Origin: a virus
Virus record (IMG/VR): IMGVR_UViG_3300045988_176782
Location: 64,001 to 128,000 of that record
Reading direction: 5' to 3' (one strand)
DNA: 64,000 nt
The notes under the pieces were generated by a model that did no database searches, was not told the origin of the DNA, and saw only the letters and a list, made by a program, of their open reading frames with translations. Shown here piece by piece: positions 1-64,000 of the stretch (the stretch's first letter is position 1; the number at the start of each line of letters is the position of its first letter). A program made the translations under genes and the position numbers.

Positions 1-91
1 GGCTTTCTGTTGTAGCAAGAAAAGCATTAAAATTTCCAGCAATTCAATGGCATTTTACTTAACCATTACTGGTTAAGGGACCTGGAACTTG

Positions 92-532
92 TCAAGTCCT
101 ATAATTCCCCTTAAGTTTGCTGTCTTTGGTCCCTACGATGTAGGCCGCGGACGAATGTAAATTACCTTTTGTATCAACCCAATTTATAATGTAATTACAC
201 TAAACCATATAAAATTTATTGTGAGGCTGATAAGCAGACACAACTTTTTTATATATAAGCCAAGGTTTTTCGTTCCAAATTACTAAATCACCGGGTTTCA
301 AATCCACCGATAACTCAGTTAATAAAATTTGAGAAACACGATTTTCATCCTATTTATCAGTCAAAATAACTCCATCAAAATAGTTATCCTCACATCGCAA
401 TCCCCTGACTGTTGCTTGATTATAATATAAATTCTTTTTAAACTCTAACTAACCAGACTTAAAAGCCCGTTCTTGCGGAGTTACTCCTAAATGAGTTGCG
501 CGCTAACGATAGACTTCAAAATATTCACTCAT
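92..532 (-). CDS. structural-module protein, 146 aa, readable only with TAG as sense
   Basis: ATG at 532-530 overlaps the upstream TGA (ATGA). Open to TGA at 92-94 with 4 in-frame TAG and no TAA/TGA. Absent from the standard-code ORF track. Confidence 0.6.
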
Positions 533-782
533 TCGCACTCAACTCCTTAACTAAATTGATACACTCAAAAATAGTTTTTCTAAAATACTGATAATCCAAA
601 TATTTTAGTTCAGAGAGTTTTCCAATAAGAGGCCAATAATTGATTGTTTTATCAATTTTTTCTAGGCCATAAAGTTCCAAAAGAATCGTTTCTAAAAATT
701 TTTCCCAAGCCCCACCTTTTTCACGTTCACAAAGCAACCCATAAAGCCGCCCTTGAAGCTTATTGTAATAACCTTCAATCAT
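525..782 (-). CDS. small head-tail module protein, 85 aa
   Basis: Intact ORF in the track. Start overlaps the upstream stop (ATGA). Lies in the head operon. Confidence 0.55.
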   Translation of the reverse strand: MIEGYYNKLQGRLYGLLCEREKGGAWEKFLETILLELYGLEKIDKTINYWPLIGKLSELKYLDYQYFRKTIFECINLVKELSANE

Positions 783-1225
783 GTATTTTTACCTGCCAAT
801 TTACCAAAAATTTTATTTGGCTTATAGCGAATAGAGCGGTCATAACGGTCCAACAAAAACAAGCAATCATCCATACATTGGGCTTGGTCTTTGATGAGCT
901 TGTCGAGGAAATTGGCCTAACTGAAATCCTTTGTTGAATAAAGGTGCCGAATGTTATCCCACGTATTCACGCAACGAGATAACCATTCATATTTCATAAA
1001 AGAAGCAAGAATCTGAATCTCGTCATTAGTTAATGTTTCGTCAAAACTTTCTGCTTTAACATCATAATCTAAAGAAATATGTGGGTAACGAAAACGCATT
1101 ATCGCCGCATCAAGCAGCATCTTCCAATCTTTTTTCACTATGTCCCAGTATTCTGTGGCCATCCAGTCATCGGTTTCAACTTTGGATAAGAACACATCAT
1201 ATACATCTTGAAAAGAGGTAGCCAT
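779..1225 (-). CDS. head-tail connector/adaptor-like protein, 148 aa
   Basis: ORF 917..1225 continues in frame through TAG at 917-919 to TGA at 779-781. Located just downstream of the capsid genes. The adaptor-like call rests on position and size only. Confidence 0.5.
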
Positions 1226-1238
1226 AGAGCTTCACCCC

Positions 1239-1688
1239 TTACTTAATAGACATACGAACGGCTTCTAAACAATCAAAACCTAAATATTGCTTTAGAGCAT
1301 TGCTGCGGCCAAGATCTGTAATCTTTAGCTCACGAGCGGTTTCAATAAACTCGTCTTTTAGTGCAGGAGATAAGTCCTTGCCCTTAAGAACAGTAATTAA
1401 ATCCTTAACAGGAGCTTCAGTTAATAAATACTTTACATTAACATCTGCGCTAGTTTTAGCAGTGGGCTTTACACTAATTTGAGCCTTAAGTTCAGCATCT
1501 TCAGTAATAACTTGCAAAAAACCGTCCTTAATAAAAGCCTGACAGCCAGGGTCGTAATTGAATTCTTCAAATACATCTTCCGGCAGTGCAGTTTCTTGCT
1601 TTGGCATCAAATCGCGACGGAAACGCACATTAGGTAAATTAATACCAATTACAAATGTGCTTAAATTCTTAACTTTAACTTTACCCAT
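1239..1688 (-). CDS. hypothetical head-module protein, 149 aa
   Basis: Intact ORF between the capsid and connector genes, ends in TAA. Confidence 0.5.
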   Translation of the reverse strand: MGKVKVKNLSTFVIGINLPNVRFRRDLMPKQETALPEDVFEEFNYDPGCQAFIKDGFLQVITEDAELKAQISVKPTAKTSADVNVKYLLTEAPVKDLITVLKGKDLSPALKDEFIETARELKITDLGRSNALKQYLGFDCLEAVRMSIK

Positions 1689-1756
1689 TATCTTTACTCC
1701 TTTTACTCATATGGAGGGAGGCCGACTCGCGGCCTCCCGCGAATTTATCTTAATCA

Positions 1757-2803
1757 TTAGGGATTTAGAATCTTATCGTTATCCCAACCGCCATCTTCAA
1801 TGGCGCTATTGTAATAAATGCCCCAGTAATAAGGCTCAGTTACAATAGCCATACCTAGCTTTTTGTAGAATTGAACTTCGGTGCTCCAATCCTTATTGTC
1901 AACATAACGCATATGGGAGTCACCAACCATAGCAATCTTAACAATCTTTTCCTTGCCAGCAGGAATTACATAAGCAAAGCGAGGATTGAAAATCATATGA
2001 GAGTTGGTTTCATCAGTGAAGCTATTAGGCATTACTACGATAGAAGCACCAGCAAATTTGCCAATATAGCCATTTTCACGGACTTCATCTGCATCACGGT
2101 CAGAAACCTTCCAATAATGCACGCCATCAGTCATAACATTGGACATTTGAGCAGCAAATTCATGACCACAATAAATAACAGGAGTGCCGTAAGCACTTAC
2201 AACAGAAATTAACTTAGACATCTTTGCAGCATCAAAGCCATTAGAAGCAGCCTTGTTTGCGCCAGGACGACCAGCATCATTCCAAGTAGCAAGTAGCATA
2301 CCTTGAATTTCTTGATAAATACGCTCGGCGAGACCATCAAGAATAATGTCATAAATTTCAAGAATATTTTCGTCACCATCAAGATAACGTTCAAAGTCCA
2401 TAATACCAGCGGCGCCGTAAGCAACTGGAGTTACTTCAAATTGCTCTTGATCAAGACGGAAAGTCTCATAGACACCAGCTGCGGTAGCACGAGTTACATA
2501 TTGCTTGCCACGTTCGCGGCCTTTCTTCTTCTTGAAGATTAGGCGGTCCTTGTTGCCAAATTGCTTTACTTCGGCAAACATACCAATTAAATCAATAACC
2601 TTACGAGGGAGAATTTCCTCAGCGGTTTGCTCTAGAATTTCAAATACTTCGGGGGCATTACGCTCAAATTGGTGACGAGTGCCCATTAGACGCTTTAGCT
2701 CATCACGAAGAGCTGCATCATAATCAATAGACTGATTCTCAAACTCGGTGGGGATATTTACACCACGAGCGCAATCTAATAGTTGCTTTAAGTTATTTTC
2801 CAT
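1757..2803 (-). CDS. major capsid protein (HK97-fold-like)
   Basis: 348 aa ORF directly after scaffold and accessory genes, with an SD upstream. Size, position and sequence character are typical of Caudoviricetes MCPs. No search was possible. Confidence 0.7.
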   Translation of the reverse strand: MENNLKQLLDCARGVNIPTEFENQSIDYDAALRDELKRLMGTRHQFERNAPEVFEILEQTAEEILPRKVIDLIGMFAEVKQFGNKDRLIFKKKKGRERGKQYVTRATAAGVYETFRLDQEQFEVTPVAYGAAGIMDFERYLDGDENILEIYDIILDGLAERIYQEIQGMLLATWNDAGRPGANKAASNGFDAAKMSKLISVVSAYGTPVIYCGHEFAAQMSNVMTDGVHYWKVSDRDADEVRENGYIGKFAGASIVVMPNSFTDETNSHMIFNPRFAYVIPAGKEKIVKIAMVGDSHMRYVDNKDWSTEVQFYKKLGMAIVTEPYYWGIYYNSAIEDGGWDNDKILNP

Positions 2804-4691: not shown

Positions 4692-6248
4692 TTAGGTAGC
4701 CCCGTCGATATTTTCATTAGTGCGGTCTGCACGCTCTTCAATACTCTTCGTAGGACGGCCACCTTCATTAGATAAGTTGGGAGTAGAAGTAGTCTTATTA
4801 GGAGTTTTTTCATTATTTTTAGAATTTTTATCGTTGGAACTTTGAGTATAACTATTATTTAATGGCACGAGTTTTTGGTCTAACTTCGCGGTCTTATTTT
4901 CATAATCAGAAAGTTCCATTAAATCTATAGCATCTAAGCCAAGTGCGCTACTAACCATTGTTTTTGGATAGCCATATTGCGCCGCTTTGAGATACATATC
5001 TACACTATCTTTTTGAAAGATTGTAGAAATTGGTAGAAACTTAATAGTGCAATAATTATTTTCAGATTTTGTGCGGTTGCGCAAAACCACATTCAACCAA
5101 ATCTCATACTACTTACTCCAAGAAAACATAATGGAAATATCTTTTTTAATAGAATAAGTAATCGCGGTGCTACCATTAGAAGAATTAAAGATTTGAGAAG
5201 TTATACCCATATCGTCATAAACGCTGGAAGTATATTTCTATAAACGACTTGTAGAGCTGTTCGCAGCGGAATCTGGTTCTTGTACGCTTTCCAAAGAAAT
5301 ATCTGCATAGGTTGTTAGAACATCAATTGTGTCGTTATCGCCTACCATATTGCAAACGCTTTGGTGCAATTCTTGCGCCTCTTCCAAAGAAAAAAGCAAT
5401 TCTCCTGTAGATTTGTCTACAGGTAATTTTTGGATTAGTAGTTTTTGTAGTTCATTTTTGTCGCGTTCTGCTTCTCTGTCACGGGCGCCCTAAAGGTCTG
5501 CAATAGCATCCATACCAGCAATAAGAGGAGGGACTCCTTCCTCATTAAACATAAAACACATCCCCCCTTCTACGGCGGGGATTTCAATCCAAAGTTCGCT
5601 CACTTTTTTCTTGCGATACAGAGCCTAAACATATTTTGGGAATAATTCTAAAATGCTTTTTCGTTCTGCCTCATCGTATGCGATATTATCAAAATAGGCC
5701 GCATTTAATTCAAGAACGGGCAAACCAAATTCATCATTAAACCTTGTGCGGCAATAGCGGACAGGCAACTAGTAGAAAATTGGTTGGTCTTTTTCTCCCA
5801 CTTTCATAAAGCCATAGTATATGCCTTCGCGTAAGATGACTTTATTAATTTTAGGCAAAAGCATCTCTAAATTCATAGATTTCAAGAATCTACAATTTTT
5901 GTTGTAAGTATTTTTTAAGTTTTTAGGCGCATTATCTAAATTATATTGCGGAATAACGATATAGTTATAAGTAAGTAATGTCGCCATATAGGCAATAATT
6001 CTATCATAAATACCGCTAAATCGCGCAAAGTAAAGTGATAATTGCCGAATAAGAGTTGGATTGCCAGAAGCAAGAATGTCATTAATTTCTTCTTTGGTAA
6101 AACCTTTTGTGGAAGTTGTACTATATACGCGGTTATACCTATCATTTAATGCACGTTCTGTTCTAGGCGCGCGATATGATGCCTTTTTTGCAAATTCAAT
6201 AAAAGCATTAATATCGCGAGGTTGGGTGTTTTCTGGCAAATTAATCAC
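4692..6248 (-). CDS. portal protein, 518 aa with TAG read as sense
   Basis: Track fragments 4692..5096 and 5769..6248 are in the same frame. I translated the gap by hand and it contains only TAG interruptions (e.g. 5109-5111, 5625-5627, 5769-5771). GTG start with GAAGG upstream. Located next to terminase. Confidence 0.75.
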
Positions 6249-6985
6249 CTGCCTTCTTTTTACTTGATGAGAAGAATGTCATTGCGCCAACACCAGTTCG
6301 TTTTTTGTTGCGACGGGTTTCTTTATCTTCGTATTCTTTAATGCGATAAAGTCCATAGGCTAGAGCAGAAACACGGTCTTTGTTTATACGTCTAGAAATC
6401 TATTCTACTGCTAACTGGTTAGCAGCGCCAGTGGGACGCAATTTTAGGTTATTAATCTCATCTATAAGTCGCGAGGTCATTATGTATGGTAAGAGGAATT
6501 TTTCTCTCTAATATAAATTCATTCGTTGGCCTTTTTTGGTTGATAGTAATTTTTCACGTGCGATTCTTTCATTGGCTAAAAGCAAAACATTTCCACTGTT
6601 CATTTGGATATAAAAGTTAGAATATATTTCGTTGTTAAGGGCAGCGTTGGCTTTTATGTTGTAGATTTTTGCCTCAACTCCACGAGGATGGGGATAAGTG
6701 TCGGGGTCATTAGAAACATAAAGTGCGCCGTATTGTTGCCCTTTAGGGCCAATGGAGGGAATAACAAGTTGGTCAAGTAGACCAGTACCGATAGTGTTTG
6801 CGTCAATTACGATGTCGCGAGGATTAAAGAGCTCGTTAAGTTCTTTAATGCGTGCGGCTTGTTCGGGGAAGGACATTTTTGTTAGATTTTCAGTATAAAC
6901 TACTTTCTTCGTCCAACCGTCTTGAGAAGGCAGGACTTTTATAATCATTACAGAAGTATCATTATTTCCTGTACGTGCTACGTCT
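6241..6985 (-). CDS. terL: terminase large subunit, exon 3 (nuclease domain)
   Basis: Begins ..DVARTGNNDTSVMIIKV. Reads through TAG at 6508-6510 and 6400-6402 to TAA at 6241-6243. Joins exon 2 in frame (FYIISV|DVAR). Confidence 0.7.
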
Positions 6986-8233
6986 CATTATTATTTCGGT
7001 AAGGTCGCTACGCTTACCGCATGGAGCTTTACATCTCTGTAAAGATTAGACTATATTTTCATCTATGATAGATGTTTCTTCTTTCGGGCGGCAATCGCTT
7101 CCGTCCTACTCCACATTGGGATAGTCGTTGAACCAATTTTCTAATATTTGTTCTATTTTACGAAAATTTGTATATGAAATTATTAAATAATTATAACCTT
7201 GCTGTTTAGCTTCTCGTTCTTTTAAAATATCTCGTTCTTGGCGTTCAGCCAAAGGTAATTTAGATTCAAATTTGACAAACTCTTTGTAATGTTGCTCTCC
7301 ATGGTATTCTATAATTAAATTATATTCAGGTATATAAAAATCATATCTATATCGTGGATTAGATTGCCATTTAAAAGTTGCTTCTTTTTGGAAAGAAATT
7401 TTTTGCGAATCTAAGTAATCTACAATTTTCTTTTCGCCATGACTCATTTTATCTGAGCATCTTGGACAACCAGCATGGCCTGATAGCAAAGCGTGAGGAG
7501 AAATTTTTCTAATAAAACCACATTTATGTCTCATTAGAATTTTTGTATCCGTGCCTTGATATTCTTCTAAAGGTTCGTAGTCTTGTGGAATTAAAGAGCG
7601 AAATACAACATCATTCATATCATGATGAGATTCACAAAAAGGACAAGTTTGGGTTTTTAAATAATCTTGTTTGCTTTTTTCAAAGATTTGATTACATTTT
7701 TCACACAGGACTTTTACAGTTTCCTTTTGTGTGTGTTCGCGGTATCCCCAATCTATAAAAGTTTGATTGGGATTATTATTAATTAATTGTAAAATTTTTT
7801 CTTTATTTTGTTTTTGTATGGCTTTATAAGCCGTCCTGCCTAAGCACTCGCAAATTGCTTGTCCATTCCTAATAAAATTATAAAAAGAAGAGTAAGTTCG
7901 TCTTTCTCCACAAGTTAAGCATTTAATTGTAAAAGGCTTACTAACTTTAGTATATTCAATAATTTCATAAGGTTGATTAGGGAATTTATTATTAATTCTT
8001 TGTTTAATTTCATCAATGATAATAATTTTCATAAATAGAATACCTCCAAAATTGGTGCTGATTGCCCTTTTGTAGCATTTAGGTTTACACCATGTGCCTT
8101 TTTGTTATTTGTTTCTGCTTTCGCGGCGTCATTATATTGAGGTAGATATAATTAGCATAACAAAACTTTCGGGGTTCCCAGCTTTTAAAGAAATTTTAGC
8201 ATCTCTTGTCACCAAGAGAGTCGGCAGAATTTT
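6986..8233 (-). mobile_element. group I-like intron A in terL (about 1.25 kb, carries an endonuclease ORF)
   Basis: Interrupts the TerL reading frame. The 5' exon ends in T and the intron ends in G. Shares the blocks GCTGGGAACCCC, GCGAAAGCAGAAA, GGGCAATCAGCA and ATATAGTCTAATCT with introns B and C. Boundaries are inferred, +/- a few nt. Confidence 0.6.
7106..8032 (-). CDS. intron-encoded homing endonuclease, PD-(D/E)xK (Vsr/DUF559-like) C-domain with CxxC zinc-ribbon repeats
   Basis: 308 aa with its own GGAGG RBS. Has several C-x2-C pairs and a C-terminal YRYDFYIPEYNLIIEYHGEQH motif. It ends in TAG in the standard reading. Read-through would add 20 codons, to TAA at 7046-7048. Confidence 0.65.
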   Translation of the reverse strand: MKIIIIDEIKQRINNKFPNQPYEIIEYTKVSKPFTIKCLTCGERRTYSSFYNFIRNGQAICECLGRTAYKAIQKQNKEKILQLINNNPNQTFIDWGYREHTQKETVKVLCEKCNQIFEKSKQDYLKTQTCPFCESHHDMNDVVFRSLIPQDYEPLEEYQGTDTKILMRHKCGFIRKISPHALLSGHAGCPRCSDKMSHGEKKIVDYLDSQKISFQKEATFKWQSNPRYRYDFYIPEYNLIIEYHGEQHYKEFVKFESKLPLAERQERDILKEREAKQQGYNYLIISYTNFRKIEQILENWFNDYPNVE

Positions 8234-8373
8234 ACCGAAATGATATAGAACATTTTTGGATTGCTTGAGGATTTAGCTTTTCTTTCAGCGTTAAGAAGCT
8301 TACGGATTTTGATAAGACGGTTAGAATTAAACCAGCTATCAGAATTACTACCTGTCCAAATTGACTGCGATTC
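8234..8373 (-). CDS. terL: terminase large subunit, exon 2 (140 nt)
   Basis: Translates ESQSIWTGSNSDSWFNSNRLIKIRKLLNAERKAKSSSNPKMFYIISV between the two introns. Its frame links exon 1 (..DSFAR) to exon 3. Confidence 0.55.
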
Positions 8374-9635
8374 CTTTATTTTTTTTCATATAAATTCGCT
8401 ATATTTATATCTGTTTTTACAGCTTATATTTTCATATAAGATAAGACTATATCTTCACCCTAAAATATTTAGGGGTTCGGCGTTAGAGCGCTTGCTCATT
8501 TAGTCGTTGAGCTAATAAGTCAGAATTTAATAATGTTTCATCATTATATGGTATTTTAATTAAAATAATATCATTATTTTTACAGTATTCAGCTTTATCT
8601 TTATCACATTGTTGCTGTTTAAGAAAAGCTTGCTCACCACCAAACCATTTAACAGGTTGGTAATGCTGGATGCCATTATATTCAATAGCATATTTCTTAT
8701 TGCTTTTTTCTAAATAGAAATCAAAGCGTAATACACGATGCTCACCACAAGGAATGATTTTTTGTTCTTCAAAAATAAAATTATATTTTTGTAAATATTC
8801 TCGTACTTTTCGTTCCCCTTTACTTGCCCTACAACGAGGGCATCCAGTGCGTTCCTTTAGAAAATGATAACAATCTACTTCCCAAATAAAACCACATTGG
8901 TTATGACGTACTTTAAAACGTCTTTGATGTTTAGAATTATGAGTGGTAGGTGCAACTCGGGTGTATTCATTGCCCCATGTTTGTTCAATACGATAATCAA
9001 TCATTTCATCGTTTAATAAAGCAAAGTTAGCTTCGCACCAAGGGCATTTTGTTCCTTCTTCTGTATAAGATACAGCAAAGGGCGCCCGAGAAAATGTATG
9101 CCCACATTTTCTACATTGCCAGTCTATTTTTTCTTTCCATGACCAACGGATGTCTTCAATTGCGAAATCTAATGGAATTAAAGAACTATTTTTAATAATT
9201 TCCATTCGTTGCTTTTGCAAGCCAGTTCTGCCAGCAGTTTCACATTTATTACAAATATCTAAATTACCACGTTTAGCCCGCTTCTTAAAATTACTGGCCA
9301 CTTTAAAAGTGAAATGAGAACCACATTTATTACAAACAATTTCACATGGATTTTCTGTACCATTAAAAGTTACAAAATCAAAATCAGATGTGGGTAAAGC
9401 TTCTTGTAAAATATCATGATATTCTTGTTGAGTATATTTCATATTAAATCCTCCTTATTAGTTGCTGATTGCCCATTAGCAAGCCCTTAGCGTTGCCGCT
9501 TAGGCTCATCCAAAAACTTATTTCTGCTTTCGCTCCGTCATAATTTAAGGTAAATTATTGTGGCATTTTGGCTTTAGGGGTTTCCAGCAGTTAACCGAAT
9601 TCTATAACTATATTACTATAGTTTCGCGCAAATCT
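8374..9635 (-). mobile_element. group I-like intron B in terL (about 1.26 kb, carries an endonuclease ORF)
   Basis: Homologous to intron A at both ends, with the same conserved blocks. The 5' exon ends in T and the intron ends in G. Boundaries are inferred. Confidence 0.6.
8483..9442 (-). CDS. intron-encoded homing endonuclease, paralog of 7106..8032
   Basis: 319 aa with AAGGAGG RBS. Has CxxC repeats and a C-terminal LRFDFYLEKSNKKYAIEYNGIQH motif. Ends in TAA. Confidence 0.65.
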   Translation of the reverse strand: MKYTQQEYHDILQEALPTSDFDFVTFNGTENPCEIVCNKCGSHFTFKVASNFKKRAKRGNLDICNKCETAGRTGLQKQRMEIIKNSSLIPLDFAIEDIRWSWKEKIDWQCRKCGHTFSRAPFAVSYTEEGTKCPWCEANFALLNDEMIDYRIEQTWGNEYTRVAPTTHNSKHQRRFKVRHNQCGFIWEVDCYHFLKERTGCPRCRASKGERKVREYLQKYNFIFEEQKIIPCGEHRVLRFDFYLEKSNKKYAIEYNGIQHYQPVKWFGGEQAFLKQQQCDKDKAEYCKNNDIILIKIPYNDETLLNSDLLAQRLNEQAL

Positions 9636-10517
9636 ACGTGCAAAGCTGTCCATATCAAAAGTCGCGCTCATTCGCTGTTCATTAAGAAACTTCTTATTAA
9701 GCAAACCATAATGCACAGGTAACTCATATGAACTGCCACAGACAAAATAATCGTCTGGGTCAATTACTTCATTAACTACTAGTTCAATTAATTTTTCATA
9801 AGCAAAGGTAGTTTTGCTACCCGCACTAGTAATATAAATTTGTTGGGCGTGAGGTTCGTCCGCATTCACGAAACCATTTACTTGAGGCCTAGGTACATTC
9901 ATCATGGGGATTATTACCTCATTCAGCAAAGTCCCATCTATCAAGGCAGCTTCCTCAACTACGCCACCCGTTGCACGCTAGCCACGACTTGAAGCAGAAA
10001 GAGCAAGAACGTGGAAAATGGAACCATTCTTAAATTTCATTTCAATATAATCGGTGCTTTGCTTTAAATATTCAAGCTCGTTTTTAAGTAGCGGCCACCA
10101 ACGAAAGATTTCTTCTATTTTTTGTTTTGCAATATCCAAAGATGCTTTTTTGTATTGAGAAACCAAAAAGCGCTTACTATTGGGTAGAAATATGCAAGAC
10201 AAGATTTGAGAGAGTATAGCAATGAAAGACTTTGAAGTTGCGCGTGTGAATGACCCGAAGAAGTATCTGTATCGCGCGCACGCTCGCAACATAACCCTCT
10301 GATAATACATTAATTTAATTGGACAATCGCGGCTTGAAATCATATCTAAAAAAAGGTCAGGGTAAAGCCGCCACTTCTCACAATAATATTGGATTAGGTC
10401 TTCATTCTATTCTACCCATCGTTCATCAAGCACAACACCTTTTTCTACTGGTATGCCGTCTCGTAGAACATTACCATTAACACGGAAGCTGTCAATTGGA
10501 TTAGTTAATTGCGTCAT
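9636..10517 (-). CDS. terL: terminase large subunit, exon 1 (ATPase domain)
   Basis: The ATG at 10517 overlaps the upstream gene end. Track fragments 9978..10343 and 9591..9944 are in frame with it and are joined by TAGs (9978-9980 and about 10400). Contains a Walker-A-like TRATSKSF. The tail of the track ORF (RFARNYSNIVIEFG*) is intron read-through. Confidence 0.7.
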
Positions 10518-10872
10518 CGTCATCATCCTCCAGGTCCATAGTATCTTCATATTCTATGGAACGAAGAGTTTCTTCTTCGGTGTCGGTATCTTCGTAGCTG
10601 CCGGTTTGTTCTAAGCGGTCAGCCAATTCAAGTTGCTTGCGGCGGTCTTCAACCTAATCGCCAATGCTACTTTCATTTTGCACCAAACGCTTAAGATGGT
10701 CTTGGATACATTTTATAGTAAAGTCTGCACTATCTTGCGGCTCAGTATGCCAATTCATCTTTTTGCCGCGTTTCTCCAAGTAAGTGAATAATTCACCTAC
10801 ACTGTCAAAATCGCCGGTTGATTTGCTGTTTTTCGGTTCAAAACCTTCAGCTTTGATAATATTATGATACAT
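10501..10872 (-). CDS. small-terminase-like protein, exon 2
   Basis: Track ORF 10654..10875 continues through TAG at 10654-10656 to TAA at 10501-10503. Acidic C-terminus. Overlaps the terL start. Confidence 0.5.
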
Positions 10873-11083
10873 CATAAAATTTAAAAGAGTTCGCTAAGCT
10901 CTTCCCATGGGGCTGCATATTACTATGCAGATTAGACTATATCATCACCTTGCGGTGTTTCCCGTTTCAGCCCGCTTGGGCTTACGCCTTTCGGCTAGTC
11001 GTTGAACGTCCCTTATAAAAATAAGGTTTCGCTGCTGATTGACCATTGTTGTATGGTGTTCCCAGCAATTAGAGAAATTTTAC
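10873..11083 (-). mobile_element. ORF-less group I-like intron C (about 211 nt)
   Basis: Contains the same blocks as introns A and B (AAAATTTCTCTAATTGCTGGGAACACC, AATCAGCAGCGAAAC, GATATAGTCTAATCT plus a hairpin, and an AAATTTTATG end). Removing it joins two in-frame coding segments. Confidence 0.5.
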
Positions 11084-11689
11084 ATGGACGTGTATCAGTT
11101 CATCCATTTCTTTTTTAGCGTCTTGACCACTACGGATTTTCTTATTAATTAAGAGTCCGACCTCGCACAGTCTCTTGGCATCGTCGCGCTAAGTTGCTGT
11201 TACAAGGTTTTGCGTAGCAAGTAAATCATTATATAAATCTTCCAAATAATGATAATCTTCAACTGTTCTTTCAATTTCGGCGGGCCATTTTCGTTGCATT
11301 CTTAGCATAAAGGCTTCATCTGCGCCATCTAAAAAGTCGCCTAATGTTCCAAAACTTTCCTCTTCCTTCCACTTCTCATTCATTGTTTCCCAATCAACAG
11401 ATTGGTAAGTTGGATTTTCACTAATTTGTTTGGCGTAAAGGTGAAGTGTGCGCTCTTTTCCGGAGCGTGCTAACTTCGTCCAAAGCTCCACACTAAATGG
11501 CCAGTCAAGCCACTACATCAACTTATTAACTGCGGCCAGGTCATCGTATGGAACCATACGCTCCAAACAATCAGTACAAAAGAGGCTTGTGCCCGCGACT
11601 TGGAAGGGGCTTTTGGTTTTTAGATATTCGGTTTGGGTTTTTTCTATCTTGCATTTTGGGCAGCGTCTTGTTTTTTCTATTCCTGCCAT
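11084..11689 (-). CDS. small-terminase-like protein, exon 1 (N-terminal zinc ribbon)
   Basis: GGAGG then ATG at 11689. Begins MAGIEKTRRCPKCK..LFCTDC. Reads through two TAGs (about 11500 and 11189-11191). The terS call rests on position immediately upstream of terL. Confidence 0.5.
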
Positions 11690-13005
11690 TATTGAGTTTC
11701 CTCCTATTTTTTACAGTTTGCTTCTTTGCGTTGGCGCCGCATTTTTTGGCACACCTTACACTATACACAATAACCGGTTTTGGTCGCTTTGTTGCGTCCA
11801 TAATAGAGTTCGTGAAGTGGTTTAAGTTGTCCGCAACAAGTGCACCGTTGGAGAGGAATTTTTTTTGTTTCTGTATCGCTTTGTATCCGCAAAATAGTGG
11901 CGGTTTTAGCGATTTTTTGAGGAATTACTTTTTTCATTAGATTAGAAACTTGCTAATCAGATAAACAAAAACCTTCTTCAATTAAAATTTTTTGAATTAA
12001 TGCTATACTGCGGTGTGCAACACGTTGGCGCAATAGGAAGGTTTCAAGGTCGGTTAATTTCGTATTTTCAATAAGGCGTTCTAAGTCCCAACAAATCATT
12101 CGTGTGGTGCTGTCAGGGTGGGGATAAGAGCGCTTTAAGAGAGAAACATAATTATCAAGTAGGGCGATGATGTGTTCGTAATTTTCGTAATTTAATTTAT
12201 TGTCGGAAATCTTCCAATACATTTTAGAAGCAGAGTTGCGTTCTGCGTCCTCATAGGAAGGTTGCTCGGTGTCGTAGGGTTTTGGTTTGCGTTTGCGGAC
12301 GCACCATTCTTCTTCCTCAAGCCATAGGCCGGTGTTGCTTTCAAAATCAACTGGGCCTTTGGTTGGCGGCGCAATATTAAAGAAATGGAGGGTTGGATTA
12401 TATGAATCTTTAATGTAGTATTGTTGGCGGCGCAAATCAATTAAAAGATGTTGCATTTTATACAACTAATACTTCGTAATGGGGTGCGCCCTTACCCATT
12501 CGTCAGGCGGAATTTTGCCTCTATACATATCATAATGCAAAGAAATGCGGTCAATAGATTTCCAAAGTTCCCTCATAAAAGGTATTTCGTTTCCTTCATT
12601 GTCAAAGTCGTCGCCATATTCTAAAATGTTGCCGTTTTCATCGTATTTGGTGCGGCGAATTTCCTACTTAAAAACTTTGTAGGGGGATTTGTTTTCGGGG
12701 GAGACGGGTTTGGCGTTGTTTTCTATGTCTTGCGCCACAACCGGGTCTTCCAGGAGCGTGTCAAGGGATTCAGTTTCTTCGGCTTTGGTTTGGAAACTGC
12801 TGTAGCGGCGTTTAGGTTGGAGGATTTCTTTGGTGTCAACTACACTTAGATTTTGGTCGTCTTTGCCGTAGAGGATGTAATCCGCCATTTGCTCCAGGTC
12901 GGTGTGATTTGGGGTTTGGGGTAACTCATCCAATATTTCTGCTATGGCATCTATGCGGTCATAGGTTGAATATATATCGTAGTTTAAACTGTAAGCTTTT
13001 TTCAT
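11689..13005 (-). CDS. putative late transcription regulator (sigma region-4-like HTH, C-terminal zinc ribbon), 438 aa if all TAGs are read through
   Basis: ATG at 13005 with AAAGGTGA RBS. Track ORFs 12664..13293 (from internal Met) and 11953..12465 plus an 82-codon CxxC ORF are all in one frame, joined by TAGs (12664-6, 12466-8, 11953-5 and two more). The LTDLETFLLRQRVAHRSIALIQKIL segment resembles an HTH. Confidence 0.45.
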
Positions 13006-24677: not shown

Positions 24678-24765
24678 GGCGATGTGATGCAATAGGCGAG
24701 ACATAGCGCACTCAAAATGCGCCACATTAGAAACATTGTCGGTTCGAATCCGACCATCGCCACCA
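24678..24765 (+). tRNA. class-II-like tRNA, anticodon CAA (Leu), encoded CCA
   Basis: Hand fold: 7-bp acceptor GGCGATG/CATCGCC, T-arm GTCGG-TTCGAAT-CCGAC, anticodon arm GCGCA-CTCAAAA-TGCGC and a 3-bp D stem. The 15-nt variable region pairs poorly, which is atypical. Confidence 0.6.
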
Positions 24766-25035
24766 AATGCCTTATGTGTTGGCGGCAGTTACATTAAAAG
24801 AACACTTCGGTTTATCCCCTCCGGAAGTGGGGTACATCCTGACCAAAAACTATCCGGGTTCAACTCCCGGCCTGCCTACGGGCGGGGCGTAGGTTGCATA
24901 GTGAGTAAGGTGGAGAAAGATAGGAATAAGTATCTACGCCAATAGATTTACTGTTCTGACCGCTTTCAGGGATGGACGTACCTTGGCGGGTACGTTTTCA
25001 AGGGAGAAAGGTGCGCAACTTTCTCTCATTCTTTT
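24766..25035 (+). ncRNA. unassigned structured spacer between tRNAs (several strong hairpins, one T-arm-like motif)
   Basis: Contains CCGGG-TTCAACT-CCCGG (24854-70), CACTTCGG..CCGGAAGTG, GGCGTAG..CTACGCC, ACGTACC..GGTACGT and GAGAAAG..CTTTCTC. I could not build a complete cloverleaf or find a CUA/UCA/UUA anticodon loop. Confidence 0.3.
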
Positions 25036-39038: not shown

Positions 39039-40169
39039 ATGTATTATAAGATAAAAGATGAATTTCTTTCTAACATCGCCGCAGCAATTAGAGAAAAATT
39101 AAACCTGCAAAAATAGCTAGAAATACAAGAATTTTCTCCTCTTATTCATTCTATTGGAGGAGAAACCTTTTTTGAAGTAGAAGGTCAAACTACATTTTTA
39201 GGCTGGGATGGTCTATAGAGGTATCGGCAAAATGCCACTTCTCCTTTCCCTTCTTCTCCCACTCCAAATTTTCTTCTCGTGGAAAAAGAAGTAGGAGATA
39301 ATTTTCTTCGTAGTAAAATCTATACTACAACCTCCGGAAAACACCTACTTTTTATTAAACTTCTCGCCGCCGCAACAATTACACTAAACATTAATGCTTC
39401 TTTTGTTGATTGGGGCGACGGCACACAAAGTACTACTCTATCCCATACCTATTCTACTGCCGGCGCATACACTATAAAATGTGATGGTACAACACTAAAG
39501 GCAAACTTCATTTCTCCTAACAGCATTTTATATGAGGCGCATTTTGCAAAAGGCTTAACCACCATACAACAAAATGCCTTTTCCAATCAAACTTTTCTCC
39601 AAATTCTAACGCTGCCTTCTTCTTGCACCAATATCGCTGCGGAAAATGTATTTAACGGTTGCGTTAGTTTAAATGCGTTAGTGTTTCCAGCTAATTGTTC
39701 TATTACAAAGTTAAATGCTGTAAAAGTTTAGAATATAATTTTGCCTTCTACAATTTCTGAACTACCTTCTTCCTACAACAATAGTAATCCCTCTCTAAAA
39801 CAAATTACTTTGCCTGAAGGTATAAAGGAAATTCCCGCCGCGTCCTTTTTGTATAATTATGGTTTGGAGCAAATTCATTTACCTTCTTCTTTGGTTTCTA
39901 TTGGCTCCAATGCCTTTAAAGGATGCGCGAATTTACAAAAATTGGAAATCCCGCAATCAATTACTACCTTAAGTGTTGATTGTTTTAGGGATTGCACTGG
40001 CTTACTTTCTATTAAATTAAAGTCTCCTACGCCTCCTATTCTCCAAAATGGGCTTGTGTTTGATAAGTCAGCTTGTCCCATTGTTGTGCCTAAAGGGACA
40101 CTTACTACCTACAAAAACGCAACAAATTGGATATTACTCCAAGACCGCTTAAAGGAGGCCGTGCAATGA
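39039..40169 (+). CDS. BspA-type leucine-rich-repeat (LRR_5-like) protein, 376 aa with three sense TAGs
   Basis: The ATG at 39039 is in frame with track ORFs 39279..39731 and 39741..40169. Repeats are of the type LPSSLVSIGSNAFKGCANLQKLEIPQSITTL. Confidence 0.6.
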
Positions 40170-40339
40170 TACAACAAAAAATATATTCAACAATTCCACT
40201 TATTTACGAAACTAAAAGTGACCGTAATATGTGGATTAAAAGCGAACTTTCTGGCGCACTTTATGTTATTGCCTATGACCCTATTCCAAAAAAATATAGC
40301 GAAACGGAGGAACCAATAAATGAGTCAACGAGTGATTGA
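40166..40339 (+). CDS. hypothetical protein, 57 aa
   Basis: AAGGAGG RBS, then ATG inside track ORF 40127..40339. Confidence 0.45.
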   Translation: MIQQKIYSTIPLIYETKSDRNMWIKSELSGALYVIAYDPIPKKYSETEEPINESTSD

Positions 40340-40985
40340 CCTTGCTAAAAAGATTTCTCCTCCTCTCCCTTGGGGTAATTAGGGTGAGGCAGGAGCGACA
40401 GATTTATTCTTAGATATAAGTGAATTTTATATGGCCGATCCGAATGGGAAAGCCATTGTTACTTTTACCCGTCAAGATGGACATACTTACATACACAAAT
40501 TTTAGTTAGAAAATAAAAACCTATTCATAACCTTAACTGCTACCGATACACAATTAGTGGGGAAATGTGAAGTTTAGATTAATTGGCTTTCTAAAGGGAA
40601 CCGATTAACTAAATCTTATAATTATAAAAGTTTTATTCTCCCCGCTGCGTCAGAAAAGCCCTTCCCATTAACAGAAGAAAGTGTTGCTGCTTTAGATAAT
40701 TTGCAATCTTATATTGAAGATGCCAAAAAAATTCTTGAAGAAGCTAAACTTAAAAAACAAATTATCTTCTGTGATGAACTTCCATTGGAAGGTTTGAGTG
40801 AGTTTGTCTATTTACTATCAAAAGATAAAGGATTATATTATTGGTCTGATGGCTGGTATTTGCTTAATCCTAAAAGTTCTGGCGGCGGTTTAGGAGATTA
40901 TGATTTTGTTTTTGGCGGCAATGCTGAAGGTCCCACAAATGAAAGTCAGTGGATTGGAGGTACTGCTAGCCAAGTAGACCCTTAA
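40320..40985 (+). CDS. tail/baseplate-associated protein, 221 aa with three sense TAGs
   Basis: GGAGG RBS. The ATG at 40320 is in frame with track ORF 40701..40985. Only TAG interruptions occur. Confidence 0.5.
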
Positions 40986-46292: not shown

Positions 46293-47414
46293 ATGGCAGA
46301 AAAAATATTGCAAACAAGAATTTAGTTAAAATATGATACTGAAACCAACTGGAATAAAGCTACAAATTTTATTCCTAAAGCTGGCGAAATTATTTTATAT
46401 TCTGATGGCGGCGGTACTGGTATTCCTAAAATGAAAGTTGGGGATGGAAGTACAAAAGTTGGAAATTTAAAATTTCTTAAAGGAGATGGAGAATATCTAA
46501 CCTCTGTCCCTGCTGGGACTTGGACTTGGACTAATGGTACATCTGCAGGGCCTACTGCAAAATTAACTATTGACTCTAATGCAACAACTATCGGCGCAAT
46601 TCCAGCTGCTTCTTAGAGCCAAAGTGGTATAATTACAACAACTTCTCAAGTCATTTCTGGTAATAAAGCTATGTTAGGTAATTTTTCTGTTGGTAGCAGA
46701 ACTGATGCAAATTTATATACTTTAAATATTAGTCGTAAAAGTGCTTCTGATGCATCTTCTATGCTGTTTTAGGGCTATATTAATGAAACCGCAAACAATT
46801 TTCAAATGTGCATTTATCGTTATGGAATAGATAATACCGAAGCTTGGCGTTTAATTCTAAATTTTTTAAATGGAACAATTACAAGTGATTCTACTACTCC
46901 AATTACTCTTGGTTCTGCGGACATTCCTTGGACTGCTGTTTATGCTAAGAAATTTGTTGGTGGTGAAGCCACAACTTCCGTAGCAGGTTTGATGAGTGCA
47001 GAAGATAAAACTGCCCTTGATAGTTTAAGCGCTGTTTTTGGTGGCAGTTCTTCTAGTTCAGCTGGCACAAAAGGTCTTGTTCCTGCTCCTGCAAGTGGGC
47101 AACAAAATTATGTTTTACGTGGCAATGGCAGTTGGTCTCAATCTGTTGTTTCTACTACTGCGACACTAACTGCCAATGGCTGGTCTTCTTCTACACCACA
47201 CACTCAAATCATTAGTGTTAGCGGTATTACTACGAATTCTAAGGTAGTAATTGATGTTAATTTAAGCGGACAAAGTTCTGACAATATTTCTAGTATTCTT
47301 GAAAATTGGAGTAATGTTAATGATATTCAAACTAATAGTGGCGCATTAACAGCTTATTGCTATGGTGATGTTCCTACAGTTAATTTGCCAATTAATATTA
47401 TTGATATTAAGTGA
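46293..47414 (+). CDS. tail fibre with HylP-type N-terminal domain, 373 aa with three sense TAGs
   Basis: The ATG at 46293 is in frame with track ORFs 46431..46616 and 46806..47414. TAGs lie at 46323-5, 46614-6 and about 46770. N-terminus is ILQTRI*LKYDTETNWNKA..KMKVGDGSTKVGNLKFL. Confidence 0.65.
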
Positions 47415-50485: not shown

Positions 50486-52681
50486 ATGGCAAAACAACTT
50501 AACGCTCGTGTTCAAACTAAACGAGACACAGAACAAAATTGGAATTAGGCAATTAACTTTATTCCTAAAGATGGCGAAATTATTATTTATAAAGCTGATA
50601 CAACCGCGGAAGAGCTTCAAACTTTTTATGAAGCATATTTGGCGGAAGTTGAAGCACTAAAATTAATTACCAATACTTCCTCAACCGAATATCAAGAACA
50701 ATCTGTAAAAGTTTCTGAAGCTCTCGCCACCTATAATAATCGCTCTACACGAATTGTGCCGCGTTTTAAAGTAGGAAATGGAGAAAAATATTTAAAAGAT
50801 TTACCTTTTGTAAATGACCCATTTGTAATTAAGGAAGAAGGTAAAGGTCTTTCTGAATGTGATTATGATAAGCGTGCTCACGATATTATTGAGAACTTAA
50901 AGCAATTTGAAGATAATAATACCGGTGAAGTTTAGTATACTGACACAAAATATACTAACGGCGTCGGATTGGGGCTATTAGAGGATACAATTCCTTCAAC
51001 TTCTCAAACCCATACTTTCTACAATACTGGTATTGTTTCTATTCAAGAAAGCGCCATTAATGGTAACATTTCTGTAGCTCGTGGTAATTCCAGCACCGAT
51101 ACCACTGTAAGTGATATTGCAATTCACGGTTTAACTCAAACTGCTTATACTTTACCTGAAACTTTTGCTACAGCAAAAGCGGGCGAGCGCGCAATGACGG
51201 CATTGCAAAATGTCGCTACTCCTTTTGAACCAGTAAGCGTAAAAGATTTAACAATTCAAAAGTTGTTTGATTTAGGTTTCTTAAATACATCTTCTATTCC
51301 TGATTCTGCCGCATATTTACTTTCAGACGAAGGAAAAGCTAAAAAAATAGAAGAAATTCCAAGCTCCGAAAACGGTAGTATAAGTTATTTAATTTTTCTT
51401 GGCCTTTATCCATATGATGTCGCCGCACAAACAATGCTTCGTGGTACAGTTAATTTACAAAAAATGGATGAGGATGACAATCTAATTAACCTCTATGCGC
51501 CTGTAATTGGATTGGGCAAAATGGCTTATATTGATGAAGTTAATGCTTCCAATATTAACTTGGATACTTTGCCTATTATGACAGGTGTTAGGAAAGTTGA
51601 AACTACTGATGAAGATGGCAACATTACCGAAACAACTTATCTTTCTGGGCATAAAGGTTTGGTTCCGACTCCAACAGAAAACGATTATGGCAAAGTTCTA
51701 TTTAGCGATGGCTCTTGGCGACCAATTACAGATATTGCGATTAACATTGGTGATATTCCTTCTGGTTTAGCAACCGATAATGAAGGTAAAATTTATAATA
51801 ATGGTATATTAAATTTAAGTAGTGAAGAAAATATTATAAACTTTACTCAACTTCAATTAGATGAAGCTACTCAAAAATATCAATTAGTTTCCTATCAACT
51901 TGAAATTCCCGCAGCGGTATCTTGGACTTCAACACTTACGAGTGGAGAACAAATTGGCACTTTAACTATTAATAACGCTGAAAATATTTTATATGCTCCG
52001 GTTGCATCCGACAGAGTGGCAAAAGCAGGAGATACAATGACCGGACGATTAATTTCTCCTGCGATAGAAATTCGCAAAGACGCTTGGCCATAGCTTCTAT
52101 TAAGCAATGCTTCAGGTGGTCCTCGTGGAATGATGTATGTAGCAACCAGTGATGGTAGTGTGGGTAATTTATATCTTAGAGCATATTCTTCTGACACAGA
52201 ATATTCTCAAGCTTATTTAACAACTTCTGGAACTTTTTCCGCACCAAGTGTTGAAGGCGCAGTCTTTAACGATTACGCAGAATACCGTGCTTTAAAAGAC
52301 CCAATTGAATCCTACGAACCAGGTTATTGTATGACCTGCAATAGAGATGGAAAACTTTTCCGCACTTCTTCTCGTATGCAACATTGTGAAGGCATTACCT
52401 CTGATACTTTTGGTTTCTCTATTGGCCGCACAGATGAAGCTACTGTTCCTCTTGCAGTTGCAGGTCGCGTACTAGTATATACTTCTGAAGACCCCTCTAC
52501 TTACTATACTGGTCAAGCTGTTTGTGCTAGTAGGGGTGGCCGCGTTTCTAAAATGACAGATTCTGAAATTGCTCAAAATCCTGACCGTATTGTTGGAATA
52601 GTAAGTGAAGTTCCTACATATGAAACTTGGGGAACAAATAATGTTAAAGTTAATGGTAGAATTTGGATTACAGTAAAATAA
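50486..52681 (+). CDS. tail fibre with HylP-type N-terminal domain and conserved C-terminal domain, 731 aa with three sense TAGs
   Basis: The ATG at 50486 (GGAGG RBS) is in frame with track ORFs 50639.., 50969.. and 52130... TAGs lie at 50546-8, 50933-5 and 52091-3. The C-terminal 140 aa or so is homologous to that of 52731..54188. Confidence 0.65.
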
Positions 52682-62624: not shown

Positions 62625-62639
62625 AAGGAGAATTGAATA

Positions 62640-63548
62640 ATGATTTGGTTTATTTTAGCAGTATTGGCATTAATTGCGGCGATTATTATTGCTATTCTAC
62701 GATATCAAGGAGCGAGCATCATTACTTTTGGGGCAGCGTTCCTATTCGGGATTTTATCAATTATTGCAAGTGTGCCTGCGGGTCATGTAGGTGTTGTATC
62801 TACTTTTGGTAAAGTAGATGAAAATGCTCGTGAAGCTGGTTTGTATGTAAAGGCGCCTTGGAGCTTTGTTACTCAAATGAGTATTCAAGAACAGCGTTAT
62901 GCTTTTGATACTGTAGCTTATAGCTCTGATATTCAAGAGGCCGCGGTTAAGGGCAGTGTTAATTATATCATTGATAAAACTGCCGCCGTCAATCTATATC
63001 GCACAGTTGGTGTAAATTATCTTGAGAAATTAATTGCTCCTCGTGTTGCGGAAAGTTTGAAAGACGTATTTTCTCATTATCGGGCGGAAGAGTTAATTAG
63101 TCAACGTGATTCTATCTCTAAAGCTATTTGCGAAAAAATGAATAAAGAATTAGAAGTATATGGTATCACAATTGTTGGATTACAAATTGAAGACATTGAT
63201 TATTCCGATCTTTTTACTTCTGCGATTGAAGCTAAACAGGTTGCGACTCAAGAGAAGTTGCGCGCTCAAACTGAGCAAGAACGTGTAACGATGGAAAAGG
63301 AAGCTCAACTTGCTCGTGATAAAGCACAAGCCGAGACTGATGCAGAGATTAAGCGTATTAATGCCCAAGCAGAAGCAGACCGTGTAAAGATGCTTGCAGA
63401 TGCAGAGGCAGAAGCTAATAAGAAAATTAGTGAATCTTTAACTGAAGACCTTATTAAGTATACCCAAATTTCCAATTGGAATGGTGTTATGCCTACGACA
63501 GTTGTTAATGGTAATAATACTATGCCTTTACTGTCTATTGGTGAATAA
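62640..63548 (+). CDS. SPFH/Band-7 (prohibitin/HflC-like) membrane protein, 302 aa
   Basis: N-terminal TM helices, then VPAGHVGVVSTFGKV..GLYVKAPW.. and a C-terminal Ala/Glu/Lys coiled coil, typical of SPFH proteins. Confidence 0.7.
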   Translation: MIWFILAVLALIAAIIIAILRYQGASIITFGAAFLFGILSIIASVPAGHVGVVSTFGKVDENAREAGLYVKAPWSFVTQMSIQEQRYAFDTVAYSSDIQEAAVKGSVNYIIDKTAAVNLYRTVGVNYLEKLIAPRVAESLKDVFSHYRAEELISQRDSISKAICEKMNKELEVYGITIVGLQIEDIDYSDLFTSAIEAKQVATQEKLRAQTEQERVTMEKEAQLARDKAQAETDAEIKRINAQAEADRVKMLADAEAEANKKISESLTEDLIKYTQISNWNGVMPTTVVNGNNTMPLLSIGE

Positions 63549-63556
63549 AAATTTTG

Positions 63557-63584
63557 GAGTGCGAAAGCACTCTTCTTTTTTTTT
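63557..63584 (+). terminator. rho-independent terminator
   Basis: GAGTGC-GAAA-GCACTC followed by TTCTTTTTTTTT. The next promoter (TTGACA 63583-8, 17 nt, TATAAT 63606-11) overlaps it. Confidence 0.8.
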
Positions 63585-63637
63585 GACAAAAATAAAAAAT
63601 TTTTATATAATATAATTATCAAGAAAGGAGAGAAACT

Positions 63638-63943
63638 ATGATAACGGTTCAAACAGGCAAAGAATACTTTAAACATATTCAAGGAAAACAACTTCAAATT
63701 TGTGAATGTTGGACTTGCCGCAATTTTGAAGGCGAAAACAAATGGTGTGGCCATAAAGGTATTGAAGTGAATTATAATACTGTTAAGGCCGATTGTGAAT
63801 ATTTTGACATAAAGGAATATTGCGGCGATTGTAAATTTTTCTTAAAGCGCTTTTCTTGTATTAAATATCCACATTGCACCATTCAAACTACCGATCACGC
63901 TTGTAAAAAATTTAAACCTAAGGATAAGGAGATTTATGTTTAA
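63638..63943 (+). CDS. Cys-rich protein, 101 aa
   Basis: GAAAGGAG RBS. Has 12 Cys, including CECWTC, CGDC and HAC. Confidence 0.55.
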   Translation: MITVQTGKEYFKHIQGKQLQICECWTCRNFEGENKWCGHKGIEVNYNTVKADCEYFDIKEYCGDCKFFLKRFSCIKYPHCTIQTTDHACKKFKPKDKEIYV

Positions 63944-64000
63944 CTACGAAACGGAAGAAGCTATTCCACTAACAGATTATACCAATTATGATTCTGAAAC
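63936..64000 (+). CDS. 5' end of a further gene, truncated by the window edge
   Basis: AAGGAG RBS then ATG. Open to the window end. Confidence 0.4.
   Translation, partial: MFNYETEEAIPLTDYTNYDSE

Follow-up and report, generated by a model that had tools for sequence, protein, structure and literature searches.

A probable reassignment of TAG to glutamine in an SPbeta-like gut phage and the locus of its suppressor tRNA

Why do the portal, terminase, head-tail and tail-fibre genes of a gut phage look shattered when they are read in the standard code? We address this question for a window of 64,000 nucleotides (positions 64,001 to 128,000 of the viral record IMGVR_UViG_3300045988_176782 in IMG/VR), which corresponds to bases 65,509-129,508, reverse strand, of the ENA contig ERZ27229731:k119_200862 (167,278 bp). 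An initial annotation of the window proposed that TAG is read as a sense codon and, tentatively, as glutamine (Gln). We are highly confident of the overall account that emerges here, in which the sequence would belong to a code 15 phage that translates TAG, almost certainly as Gln, and encodes its own tRNA with a CUA anticodon, tRNA(CUA). Relatives are cited by their IMG/VR number or, for single retrieved sequences, by an L number.

In-frame TAG codons in the window

The public gene calls on the contig comprise 52 genes in the covered parts of the window, with 13-35 kb not among them. They were evidently made with a table in which TAG is sense and give products of, e.g., 731, 485 and 438 amino acids (aa). 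All 52 genes start with ATG, are free of internal TAA and TGA, and terminate with TAA in 35 cases and with TGA in 17. Across 18 of these genes, 46 in-frame TAG are found, including all 21 that the initial annotation had traced by hand. Each of these 21 is indeed an in-frame TAG flanked by coding sequence on either side, and each of the joined open reading frames (ORFs) ends in TAA or TGA. In-frame TAA or TGA, which had been named as a finding that would contradict the reassignment, is absent from the interior of the 52 called genes. The further claim that all coding sequences end in TAA or TGA holds as well but is partly tautological under a TAG-sense table. In about 66 TAG-free ORFs of our own TAG-sense gene set for the window, the first stop is likewise never TAG. 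Since TAG accounts for only 18% of the off-frame stop triplets in the 52 genes, finding TAG at 46 out of 46 interruptions has a probability of P ~1e-34 under random decay.

Simple comparisons of ORF length and coverage between alternative stop sets proved not to be discriminating, as freeing TAA in this sequence of 37% GC raises coverage at least as much as freeing TAG. Because these statistics do not single out TAG, a frame-specific coding score and homology were used instead. The score is based on codon usage trained on long unbroken genes and was computed in the same frame over the 40 codons downstream of a stop triplet. Coding potential persists after TAG (mean +0.20, 58% above threshold) and collapses after TAA or TGA (mean -0.15, ~10% above threshold). 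In the gene at 50486..52681, the score is high across all three TAG.

Homology spans TAG codons in the portal, the large terminase (TerL), a head-tail protein and the N-terminal domain of a tail fibre. The 518-aa portal frame matches phrog_2739 in one stretch (residues 12-516 versus profile positions 8-495 of 501) and, in tblastn, aligns as a single match with portals from Lactococcus and Bacillus phages, which are large Firmicutes siphoviruses. For the head-tail gene at 779..1225, the stop of which (TGA) overlaps the ATG of the next gene, the phrog_3853 match covers residues 1-120 and includes the TAG at residue 103. In 46293..47414, the TAG at residue 11 falls within the match to the N-terminal tail-fibre domain (residues 1-69), and the phrog_5767 match of 11689..13005 (residues 266-421) spans a TAG as well.

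Moreover, the TAG positions are conserved. In a comparison restricted to true reading frames, an aligned partner exists for 52 window TAG sites, and at 48 of them at least one relative also has TAG. The same positions recur in independent assemblies from other samples with 87-99% identity, and the sites that differ hold sense codons. All TAG of the genes at 92..532 (4/4) and 11689..13005 are conserved in L003 and L004, those of 39039..40169 are conserved in four relatives, and TAG 46323 is TAG in seven. Based on these data we take TAG to be a sense codon in this genome, with TAA and TGA as the sole terminators.

The view that TAG alone shatters the genes holds for the TAG-broken genes but not for the terminase and the YonG-like gene, which are also split by introns. 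TerL is encoded on the minus strand in three exons (10517..9636, 8376..8212 and 6984..6241). The two intron-sized segments of ~1.2 kb between them (8377-9635 and 6985-8211) harbor endonuclease ORFs (8483..9442 and 7046..8032), and only intron 1 yields a group I model match, at 8423-8577 and below threshold (43.2 bits). TerL proteins of relatives align by tblastn with residues 8-294 at 10469..9636, across TAG 10407 and 9978, and with residues 341-588 at 6984..6268; TAG 9978 is CAG in L003. Similarly, residues 194-296 of a 313-aa YonG homologue align to 10863..10546, and TAG 11189 of the YonG-like gene is CAG in L004. The endonuclease called at 7106..8032 had been noted as the only coding sequence ending in TAG, and this observation is borne out: the TAG sits where the family alignment ends (phrog_559 match, residues 7-302 of 308), read-through adds 20 codons, and TAG 7106 is conserved in L004.

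TAG is concentrated in packaging, tail and lysis genes, and early genes are readable in the standard code. Genes of the window with TAG encode head-tail, portal, terminase, YonG-like, fibre and tail proteins and are joined by a few at 35-41 kb. With a share of 9% among the Gln-family codons, TAG is about as frequent as CAG. No TAG is found in the block of small genes spanning 13.5-31 kb, nor at 54-64 kb. As an exception to the late-gene enrichment, it is also lacking in the genes for the major capsid (YonB), the scaffold, the YonD-like protein and three large fibres. Elsewhere on the contig, the lysis genes PG_binding_1, SpoIID and SH3 contain 2, 5 and 2 TAG, respectively. A relative with 96-99% identity, the whole genome of which was tiled, carries 36 TAG in a 3318-aa tape-measure gene and 12 and 18 TAG in two further tail genes; its polymerase, helicase and primase genes have none and its replication genes mostly none. 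This distribution matches the published pattern of code 15 phages. As far as is currently known, the phenomenon is ordinary for gut phages.

The suppressor tRNA and its alleles in relatives

A CUA tRNA is missing from the window in ARAGORN and Rfam searches, even at permissive settings, and the 18 kb flanking the window contain no tRNA gene. The initial annotation had suggested looking for such a tRNA in the rest of the genome, where it is present. The locus was recovered through a cluster member of the adjacent RNA ligase. A search with a homing-endonuclease paralog had yielded no match from the 167,278-bp contig. The tRNA(CUA) is intact, 90 nt long and located at L229 7228-7317, which equals window-equivalent positions 78,742-78,831, 14.7 kb past the right end. 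It is found by ARAGORN at default settings and matches the Rfam tRNA model with 58.9 bits (E 1.8e-11). At least 16 tRNAs, one of them a suppressor, are encoded in the ~100 kb of contig read.

The tRNA(CUA) gene lies directly downstream of the TAG-containing lysis genes and is followed by a free-standing GIY-YIG endonuclease gene, an abiF motif, a ROOL RNA, YqeY and an RNA ligase. On L229, the abiF motif is at 8326-8362 and the full-length ROOL RNA at 8595-9170 (296 bits), i.e., at ~79.8-80.7 kb in window-equivalent coordinates. The corresponding elements of the relative L163 are found at 7369-7405 and 7640-8210, and ROOL scores range from 296 to 310 bits. The YqeY (GatB-tail-like) gene is 2.2 kb away from the suppressor. 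Suppressor, abiF, ROOL, YqeY and RNA ligase look like a tRNA-centered module beside the lysis genes. By eye, the N-terminus of the RNA ligase resembles a tRNA-binding domain; a profile match is absent. A release-factor gene, the second candidate that the initial annotation had suggested searching for, did not turn up in a six-frame search for the motif (GGQ, SGAGGQ-type) across ~91 kb of the own contig and tiles of relative 173030, in which a relative with 96-99% identity stands in for most of the remaining contig. The matches of this motif search were only endonucleases and a tail protein.

Next, we turn to the relatives. The genome of IMGVR_UViG_3300045988_173030 was walked with joined end-protein queries, and its last gap was closed by a flank-identical metagenome contig. 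In the complete tiling, default ARAGORN and Rfam detect a dozen tRNAs, none with a CUA anticodon. The idea of a clade without CUA tRNA was overturned by relaxed ARAGORN settings and inspection of the locus, since already slightly relaxed settings reveal an 86-nt CUA tRNA between the lysis genes and the ROOL RNA. In this tRNA, which both default ARAGORN and the Rfam tRNA model miss, the D stem has 5 bp and encloses a 4-nt loop, and the anticodon stem has 6 bp and the loop CUCUAAA. The variable region spans ~20 nt and the T stem 4 bp, and the T-psi-C motif is lacking. Copies are found at L163 7261-7346 (the same copy as L160 c4516-4601), L227 5091-5176 and L224 5555-5640. In these three copies from different samples, all 25 proposed pairs form and 8 pairs change on both sides, as compared with 0-1 compensatory pairs in shifted-partner controls.

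A further allele is present in relative 170892 (L164 ~6980-7345) and, at the same locus, in scaffold_12 (L225/L226). Here, an insert of ~270 nt splits the anticodon of a tRNA with a long variable arm, between positions 35 (U) and 36 (A). The insert is preceded by a U, has G as its last nucleotide and scores 45.9 bits (E 1.5e-10) against the group I model. When the exons are joined, the loop CUCUAAA is restored and ARAGORN detects the tRNA at default settings. Group I introns are known to interrupt the anticodon loop of cyanobacterial and plastid tRNA-Leu(UAA) and of Azoarcus tRNA-Ile. The intron allele resembles these intron-split tRNAs of bacteria, but the interrupted tRNA would be a phage amber suppressor and its splicing is predicted. 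In the papers searched, we found neither a report of an amber suppressor split by a group I intron in a phage nor a description of a polymorphic suppressor locus with intron-split and non-canonical alleles.

At this one locus, a CUA tRNA is present in each of the five close relatives that were examined. None of these relatives was among the matches listed in an IMG/VR scan with a generic suppressor anticodon/T-arm pattern. Between the own genome and the relatives, the alignment extends right up to the tRNA and resumes after the endonuclease gene, such that the tRNA behaves as a replaceable cassette. In our estimate it is an even call that the suppressor represents a swappable cassette at a fixed locus with at least three forms (long-arm intact, group I-split and 86-nt non-canonical), hidden ones included.

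Other tRNA genes of the lineage also vary. In the tRNA cluster, a tRNA-like gene with an anticodon-loop insertion is located at L229 16389-16504 (52 bits with the Rfam tRNA model; Phe(AAA) plus intron according to ARAGORN), and similar genes occur at L163 14581-14696 and 12393-12512. One copy is 94% conserved in a relative. The insertions of 43-47 nt are too short for group I introns. Neither the gene with the 43-nt insertion nor the phage tRNA-Trp(CCA) was retained as a suppressor candidate, as we found no route from them to a CUA anticodon. The tRNA-Leu at 24678-24765 has the anticodon CAA here and in 170892 and UAA in 173030 (L006 5021-5106), and the adjacent tRNA-Ile(UAU) is missing from 170892, such that the tRNA repertoire differs between near-identical genomes.

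The amino acid at TAG and competing explanations

The tentative assignment of TAG to Gln was based on one paralog column, the TAG of RI*LKYD (46293) that aligns with Gln in RVQTKRD (50486). The hint itself is weak, as other paralogs have Cys or Thr there. The assignment itself, however, is backed far more strongly by other data. Among 97 aligned partner codons in related phages, counted in both directions with each site entered once per distinct non-TAG partner, 35 encode Gln as compared with a Gln background of ~4%. The other partners include Ala (9), Lys (8), Arg (6), Glu (6), Thr (6), Leu (4), Tyr (3), Ser (1) and Trp (1). In agreement, the BLOSUM62 sum at TAG sites is highest for Gln (157), followed by Glu (63) and Lys (39). 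CAA is the commonest partner, ahead of CAG, despite being two mutational steps away from TAG. This mirrors the CAA:CAG usage of the genome itself (403:45), as predicted by synonymous drift within one codon family.

The portal provides a more detailed picture. In the portal of L037 (53% identical), CAA is found at three of the five window TAG columns, and a homologue with 36% identity has CAG at one of them. Two of the portal TAG columns are conserved Gln over ~70 homologues, a count that is partly circular because the protein database already translates TAG as Q; hence, the real codons were checked instead. From these alignments we consider it very likely that TAG encodes Gln. The tRNA(CUA) of the phage combines a U1-A72 pair and U35, which favour Gln identity, with A73 and a long variable arm, which do not. 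Charging with Gln would nevertheless be expected from the codon alignments. As the suppressor differs from a textbook tRNA-Gln, the Gln assignment rests on alignments and not on tRNA identity rules.

A different amino acid at TAG, i.e., Leu, Tyr, Ser, Trp or pyrrolysine, is the strongest of the alternatives but an unlikely one. Leu, Tyr or Ser would fit the long variable arm and A73, and pyrrolysine owes its place to ARAGORN, which labels any CUA tRNA as 'Pyl'. The Trp codon is a single step away from TAG, TAG and TGG correspond once in each direction (at 52091 and at 34370), and a tRNA-Trp is encoded by the phage. None of these residues, nor Lys, approaches Gln in the partner counts, however, and neither the prevalence of the two-step codon CAA nor the coincidence of TAG with portal columns of conserved Gln, filled by real CAA or CAG codons in homologues, would be expected if TAG had another meaning.

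Slightly less probable still is a decoding of TAG independent of the phage tRNA, either by near-cognate reading through the host tRNA-Gln(CUG) after the phage inhibits release factor 1 or in a host that itself reads TAG as sense. Such a scenario would account for the failure of default tRNA searches to find a CUA tRNA in a whole relative genome, and only 40% of TAG-recoded genomes were found to have a suppressor tRNA (Borges et al., bioRxiv 10.1101/2021.08.26.457843). In the present lineage, the apparent absence reflects a failure of detection, as each relative examined has a CUA tRNA, be it non-canonical or intron-split, and that of the own genome is plainly detectable. Furthermore, we know of no bacterial host that reads TAG as Gln. 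That the genes are genuinely broken, in a decaying prophage or a mis-assembled or mis-sequenced contig, would explain why many essential genes are fragmented under the standard code and why ORF coverage does not single out TAG, but is extremely improbable given interruptions that are TAG without exception and never TAA, TGA or a frameshift, their recurrence in independent assemblies, the coding signal downstream of them and a dedicated CUA tRNA.

Returning to a phage that decodes TAG as Gln with its own tRNA(CUA), several points weigh against this account. All support stems from sequence. TAGs near the 3' ends of genes (7106, 11704 and 48474) could in principle act as terminators. About one third of the TAG correspondences come from alignments with less than 60% identity, which makes the residue opposite TAG noisy. 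The suppressor has two features of Leu and Tyr tRNAs, the long variable arm and A73. A release-factor or aminoacyl-tRNA-synthetase gene that would complete a 'code-change module' was not found in the motif search. Finally, the binning of relatives with metagenome-assembled genomes (MAGs) is weak evidence for the host and its presumed code.

Gene map, related phages and implications

The phage is, judged by its gene content, an SPbeta-like siphovirus of ~167 kb from a gut metagenome. The SPbeta-type virion Pfams YonB, YonG_N, YomU_Tube, YomV and YomW are syntenic with the portal, terminase and tape-measure genes, a call based on precomputed Pfam matches on genes of the contig and its relatives. 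IMG/VR and metagenome scans reveal near-identical relatives of 165-168 kb (87-99% nucleotide identity) and further relatives graded at 73-79%, ~53% and 34-40% protein identity, and megablast with the window retrieves no close relative among GenBank phages. Relatives were binned with Clostridiales and Lachnospiraceae MAGs, which is weak evidence on the host, and the lysins of the lineage point to a Gram-positive host. The host is probably a standard-code Gram-positive bacterium of the Clostridia. Table 1 lists the TAG-bearing genes of the window together with the exons, the intron and the tRNA genes.

Table 1. Features of the 64,000-nt window. TAG positions are those of in-frame codons; an empty cell means that no TAG is given.
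Feature	Coordinates	Strand	In-frame TAG	Basis and remarks
Head-tail region gene, 146 aa	92..532	-	503, 449, 350, 200 (4)	Public call, weak PHROG match
Head-tail gene, 148 aa	779..1225	-	917	phrog_3853
Portal	4692..6248	-	5769, 5625, 5490, 5238, 5109 (5)	phrog_2739; public start 5987
Large terminase exon 3	6241..6984	-	6508, 6400	tblastn, phrog_24618, phrog_5909
Endonuclease ORF (PHROG HNH/homing families)	7046..8032	-	7106	phrog_559; inside terminase intron 2
Large terminase exon 2, ~54 aa	8212..8376	-		tblastn, TerL residues 294-346
Large terminase exon 1 ORF	9591..10517	-	10407, 9978	tblastn; homology ends near 9636
YonG-like gene exon 2	10501..10908	-	10894, 10654	tblastn
Group I intron splitting YonG-like gene	10913..11156	-		Rfam RF00028, 93.6 bits, E 1e-22
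YonG-like gene exon 1 ORF	11069..11689	-	11513, 11189	Pfam YonG_N on public record, tblastn
438-aa gene, sigma-factor/HNH-like C-terminus	11689..13005	-	12664, 12466, 11953, 11761, 11704 (5)	Public call
tRNA genes Leu(CAA), Lys(UUU), Ile(UAU), the only ones in the window	24678..25190	+		ARAGORN, Rfam
213-aa gene, helix-turn-helix-like	35323..35964	+	35467	Public call; TAG conserved in L005, L008
188-aa gene	36135..36701	+	36222, 36267, 36270	Public call; 36270 is CAA in L005, L008
193-aa gene	38454..39035	+	38718, 38757, 38934	Public call; 38718 is CAA in L006, L007
376-aa leucine-rich-repeat gene	39039..40169	+	39114, 39216, 39729	Public call, Pfam LRR_5
221-aa gene	40320..40985	+	40380, 40503, 40575	Public call; 40380 is CAA in L009-L013
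Tail-fibre paralog, 373 aa	46293..47414	+	46323, 46614, 46770	Public call
Tail protein, 371 aa	47424..48539	+	47697, 48474	Public call; 48474 is CAA in L008
Tail-fibre paralog, 731 aa	50486..52681	+	50546, 50933, 52091	Public call
Tail-fibre paralog, 485 aa	52731..54188	+	52773	Public call; TAG conserved in L008

The tail-fibre-like genes starting at 41006, 43945, 46293, 50486 and 52731 (+) share an N-terminal domain of the HylP/tail-fibre type, to which the large gene at 42274 (+) does not align. The three large genes in 41006-45801 contain no TAG, and those at 46293, 50486 and 52731 contain 1-3 each. Amid plus-strand genes, a minus-strand ORF at 31967-32644 would include four in-frame TAG if extended, three of which are conserved in relatives. 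Its standard-code version begins at an ATG right after one of these TAG, and the long form would be a tentative reading. Group I introns and homing endonucleases of the DUF723/HNH, GIY-YIG and NUMOD types are unusually abundant in the genome. Several further introns are located in the tail-tube region (L002 15938-16551 and 12700-12999; L162 3171-8568), and the intron content varies between relatives that are 96% identical.

TAG-to-Gln recoding in gut phages is already well documented, and the present lineage adds to it; the NCBI taxonomy lists a 'Caudoviricetes code 15 clade'. TAG-recoded gut phages have been described in eight clades with a late-gene bias and suppressor tRNAs near lysis genes, the code 15 clades being Lak, crAss-like, Jade, Sapphire, Agate, Garnet, Amethyst and Topaz (Borges et al., bioRxiv 10.1101/2021.08.26.457843). 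The phage analysed here resembles them in its TAG-containing structural and lysis genes, standard-code early genes, suppressor beside the lysis genes, gut origin and predicted standard-code hosts, and its size falls within the ~150-210 kb of the larger clades. In contrast to that set, a 'code-change module' (release factor 2 or a cognate synthetase), an accessory that only a minority of these phages carry, was not found here by motif search, the structural module is SPbeta-like, and the genome stands out by its unusual richness in group I introns.

A second point of comparison is phAss-1 (OQ749652), a 136-kb human-gut siphovirus of the proposed Phassvirus with three Sup-CTA tRNAs, in which terminase, portal and tail genes contain TAG decoded as Gln (Babkin et al., 2023; PMC10607447). 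One of these, an 88-nt Sup-CTA tRNA with a long variable arm, is built like the suppressor found here. Homologues in phAss-1 exist for only 13 of 89 queried window proteins, with 27-45% identity (major capsid 38%, TerL 39%, portal 28%). Members of Phassvirus share 80-86% nucleotide identity, and megablast yields no nucleotide match to phAss-1, which places the present phage outside Phassvirus. Furthermore, phAss-1 encodes 36 tRNAs with three suppressors, compared with the at least 16 and one counted here, and its TerL is a continuous ORF rather than three exons. Distant relatives of the window are found among the IMG/VR contigs L021-L029 (104-146 kb), which show 34-40% identity on a 618-aa fibre protein and carry 17-21 tRNAs each, and some a tmRNA. 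About 1.2 kb downstream of the fibre gene, they share a Sup(CUA) tRNA of 76 nt, which is conserved, has G73, CCA and a U1/U72 mismatch, and is homologous to suppressor 2 of phAss-1.

For crAss-like phages, code 15 has been validated at the peptide level by proteomics (Peters et al., 2022; PMC9523058). These phages share the reassignment but belong to an unrelated order with Bacteroidota hosts. SPbeta, the Lactococcus 949 group and Bacillus/Brevibacillus phages have homologous portal, capsid, tube and tail-module proteins and a similar genome size; the portals of SPbeta and the large Firmicutes siphoviruses are only ~26% identical to that of the window. Group I introns with homing endonucleases are known in this group of phages. 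SPbeta and the large cultured Firmicutes siphoviruses are assumed to use the standard code.

How such a genome might be expressed follows a model proposed by Borges et al. (bioRxiv 10.1101/2021.08.26.457843). Upon infection of a standard-code Gram-positive host, the early genes would be readable in the code of the host. The suppressor tRNA of the phage would then accumulate, be charged by a host enzyme and compete with release factor 1 at UAG, whereupon late proteins could be made in full length and assembly and lysis could follow.

For annotation, the contig and many of its gut relatives need table 15, as table 11 breaks portal, terminase, tape-measure, fibre and lysis genes. With the RNA ligase alone as query, 7,990 homologues were retrieved at E <= 1e-30, and many of these lie on contigs of 150-200 kb. 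The phage would add an SPbeta-like, intron-rich, Firmicutes-infecting lineage to those whose late genes are unreadable until their own suppressor is present. If the intron form of the suppressor is functional, the switch of the genetic code would depend on RNA self-splicing. Relatives that appear suppressor-less to standard tools carry CUA tRNAs, which bears on how most recoded phages decode the reassigned codon. If the view of hidden suppressor forms is true, they could explain much of the ~60% of TAG-recoded phages that are reported to lack a suppressor.

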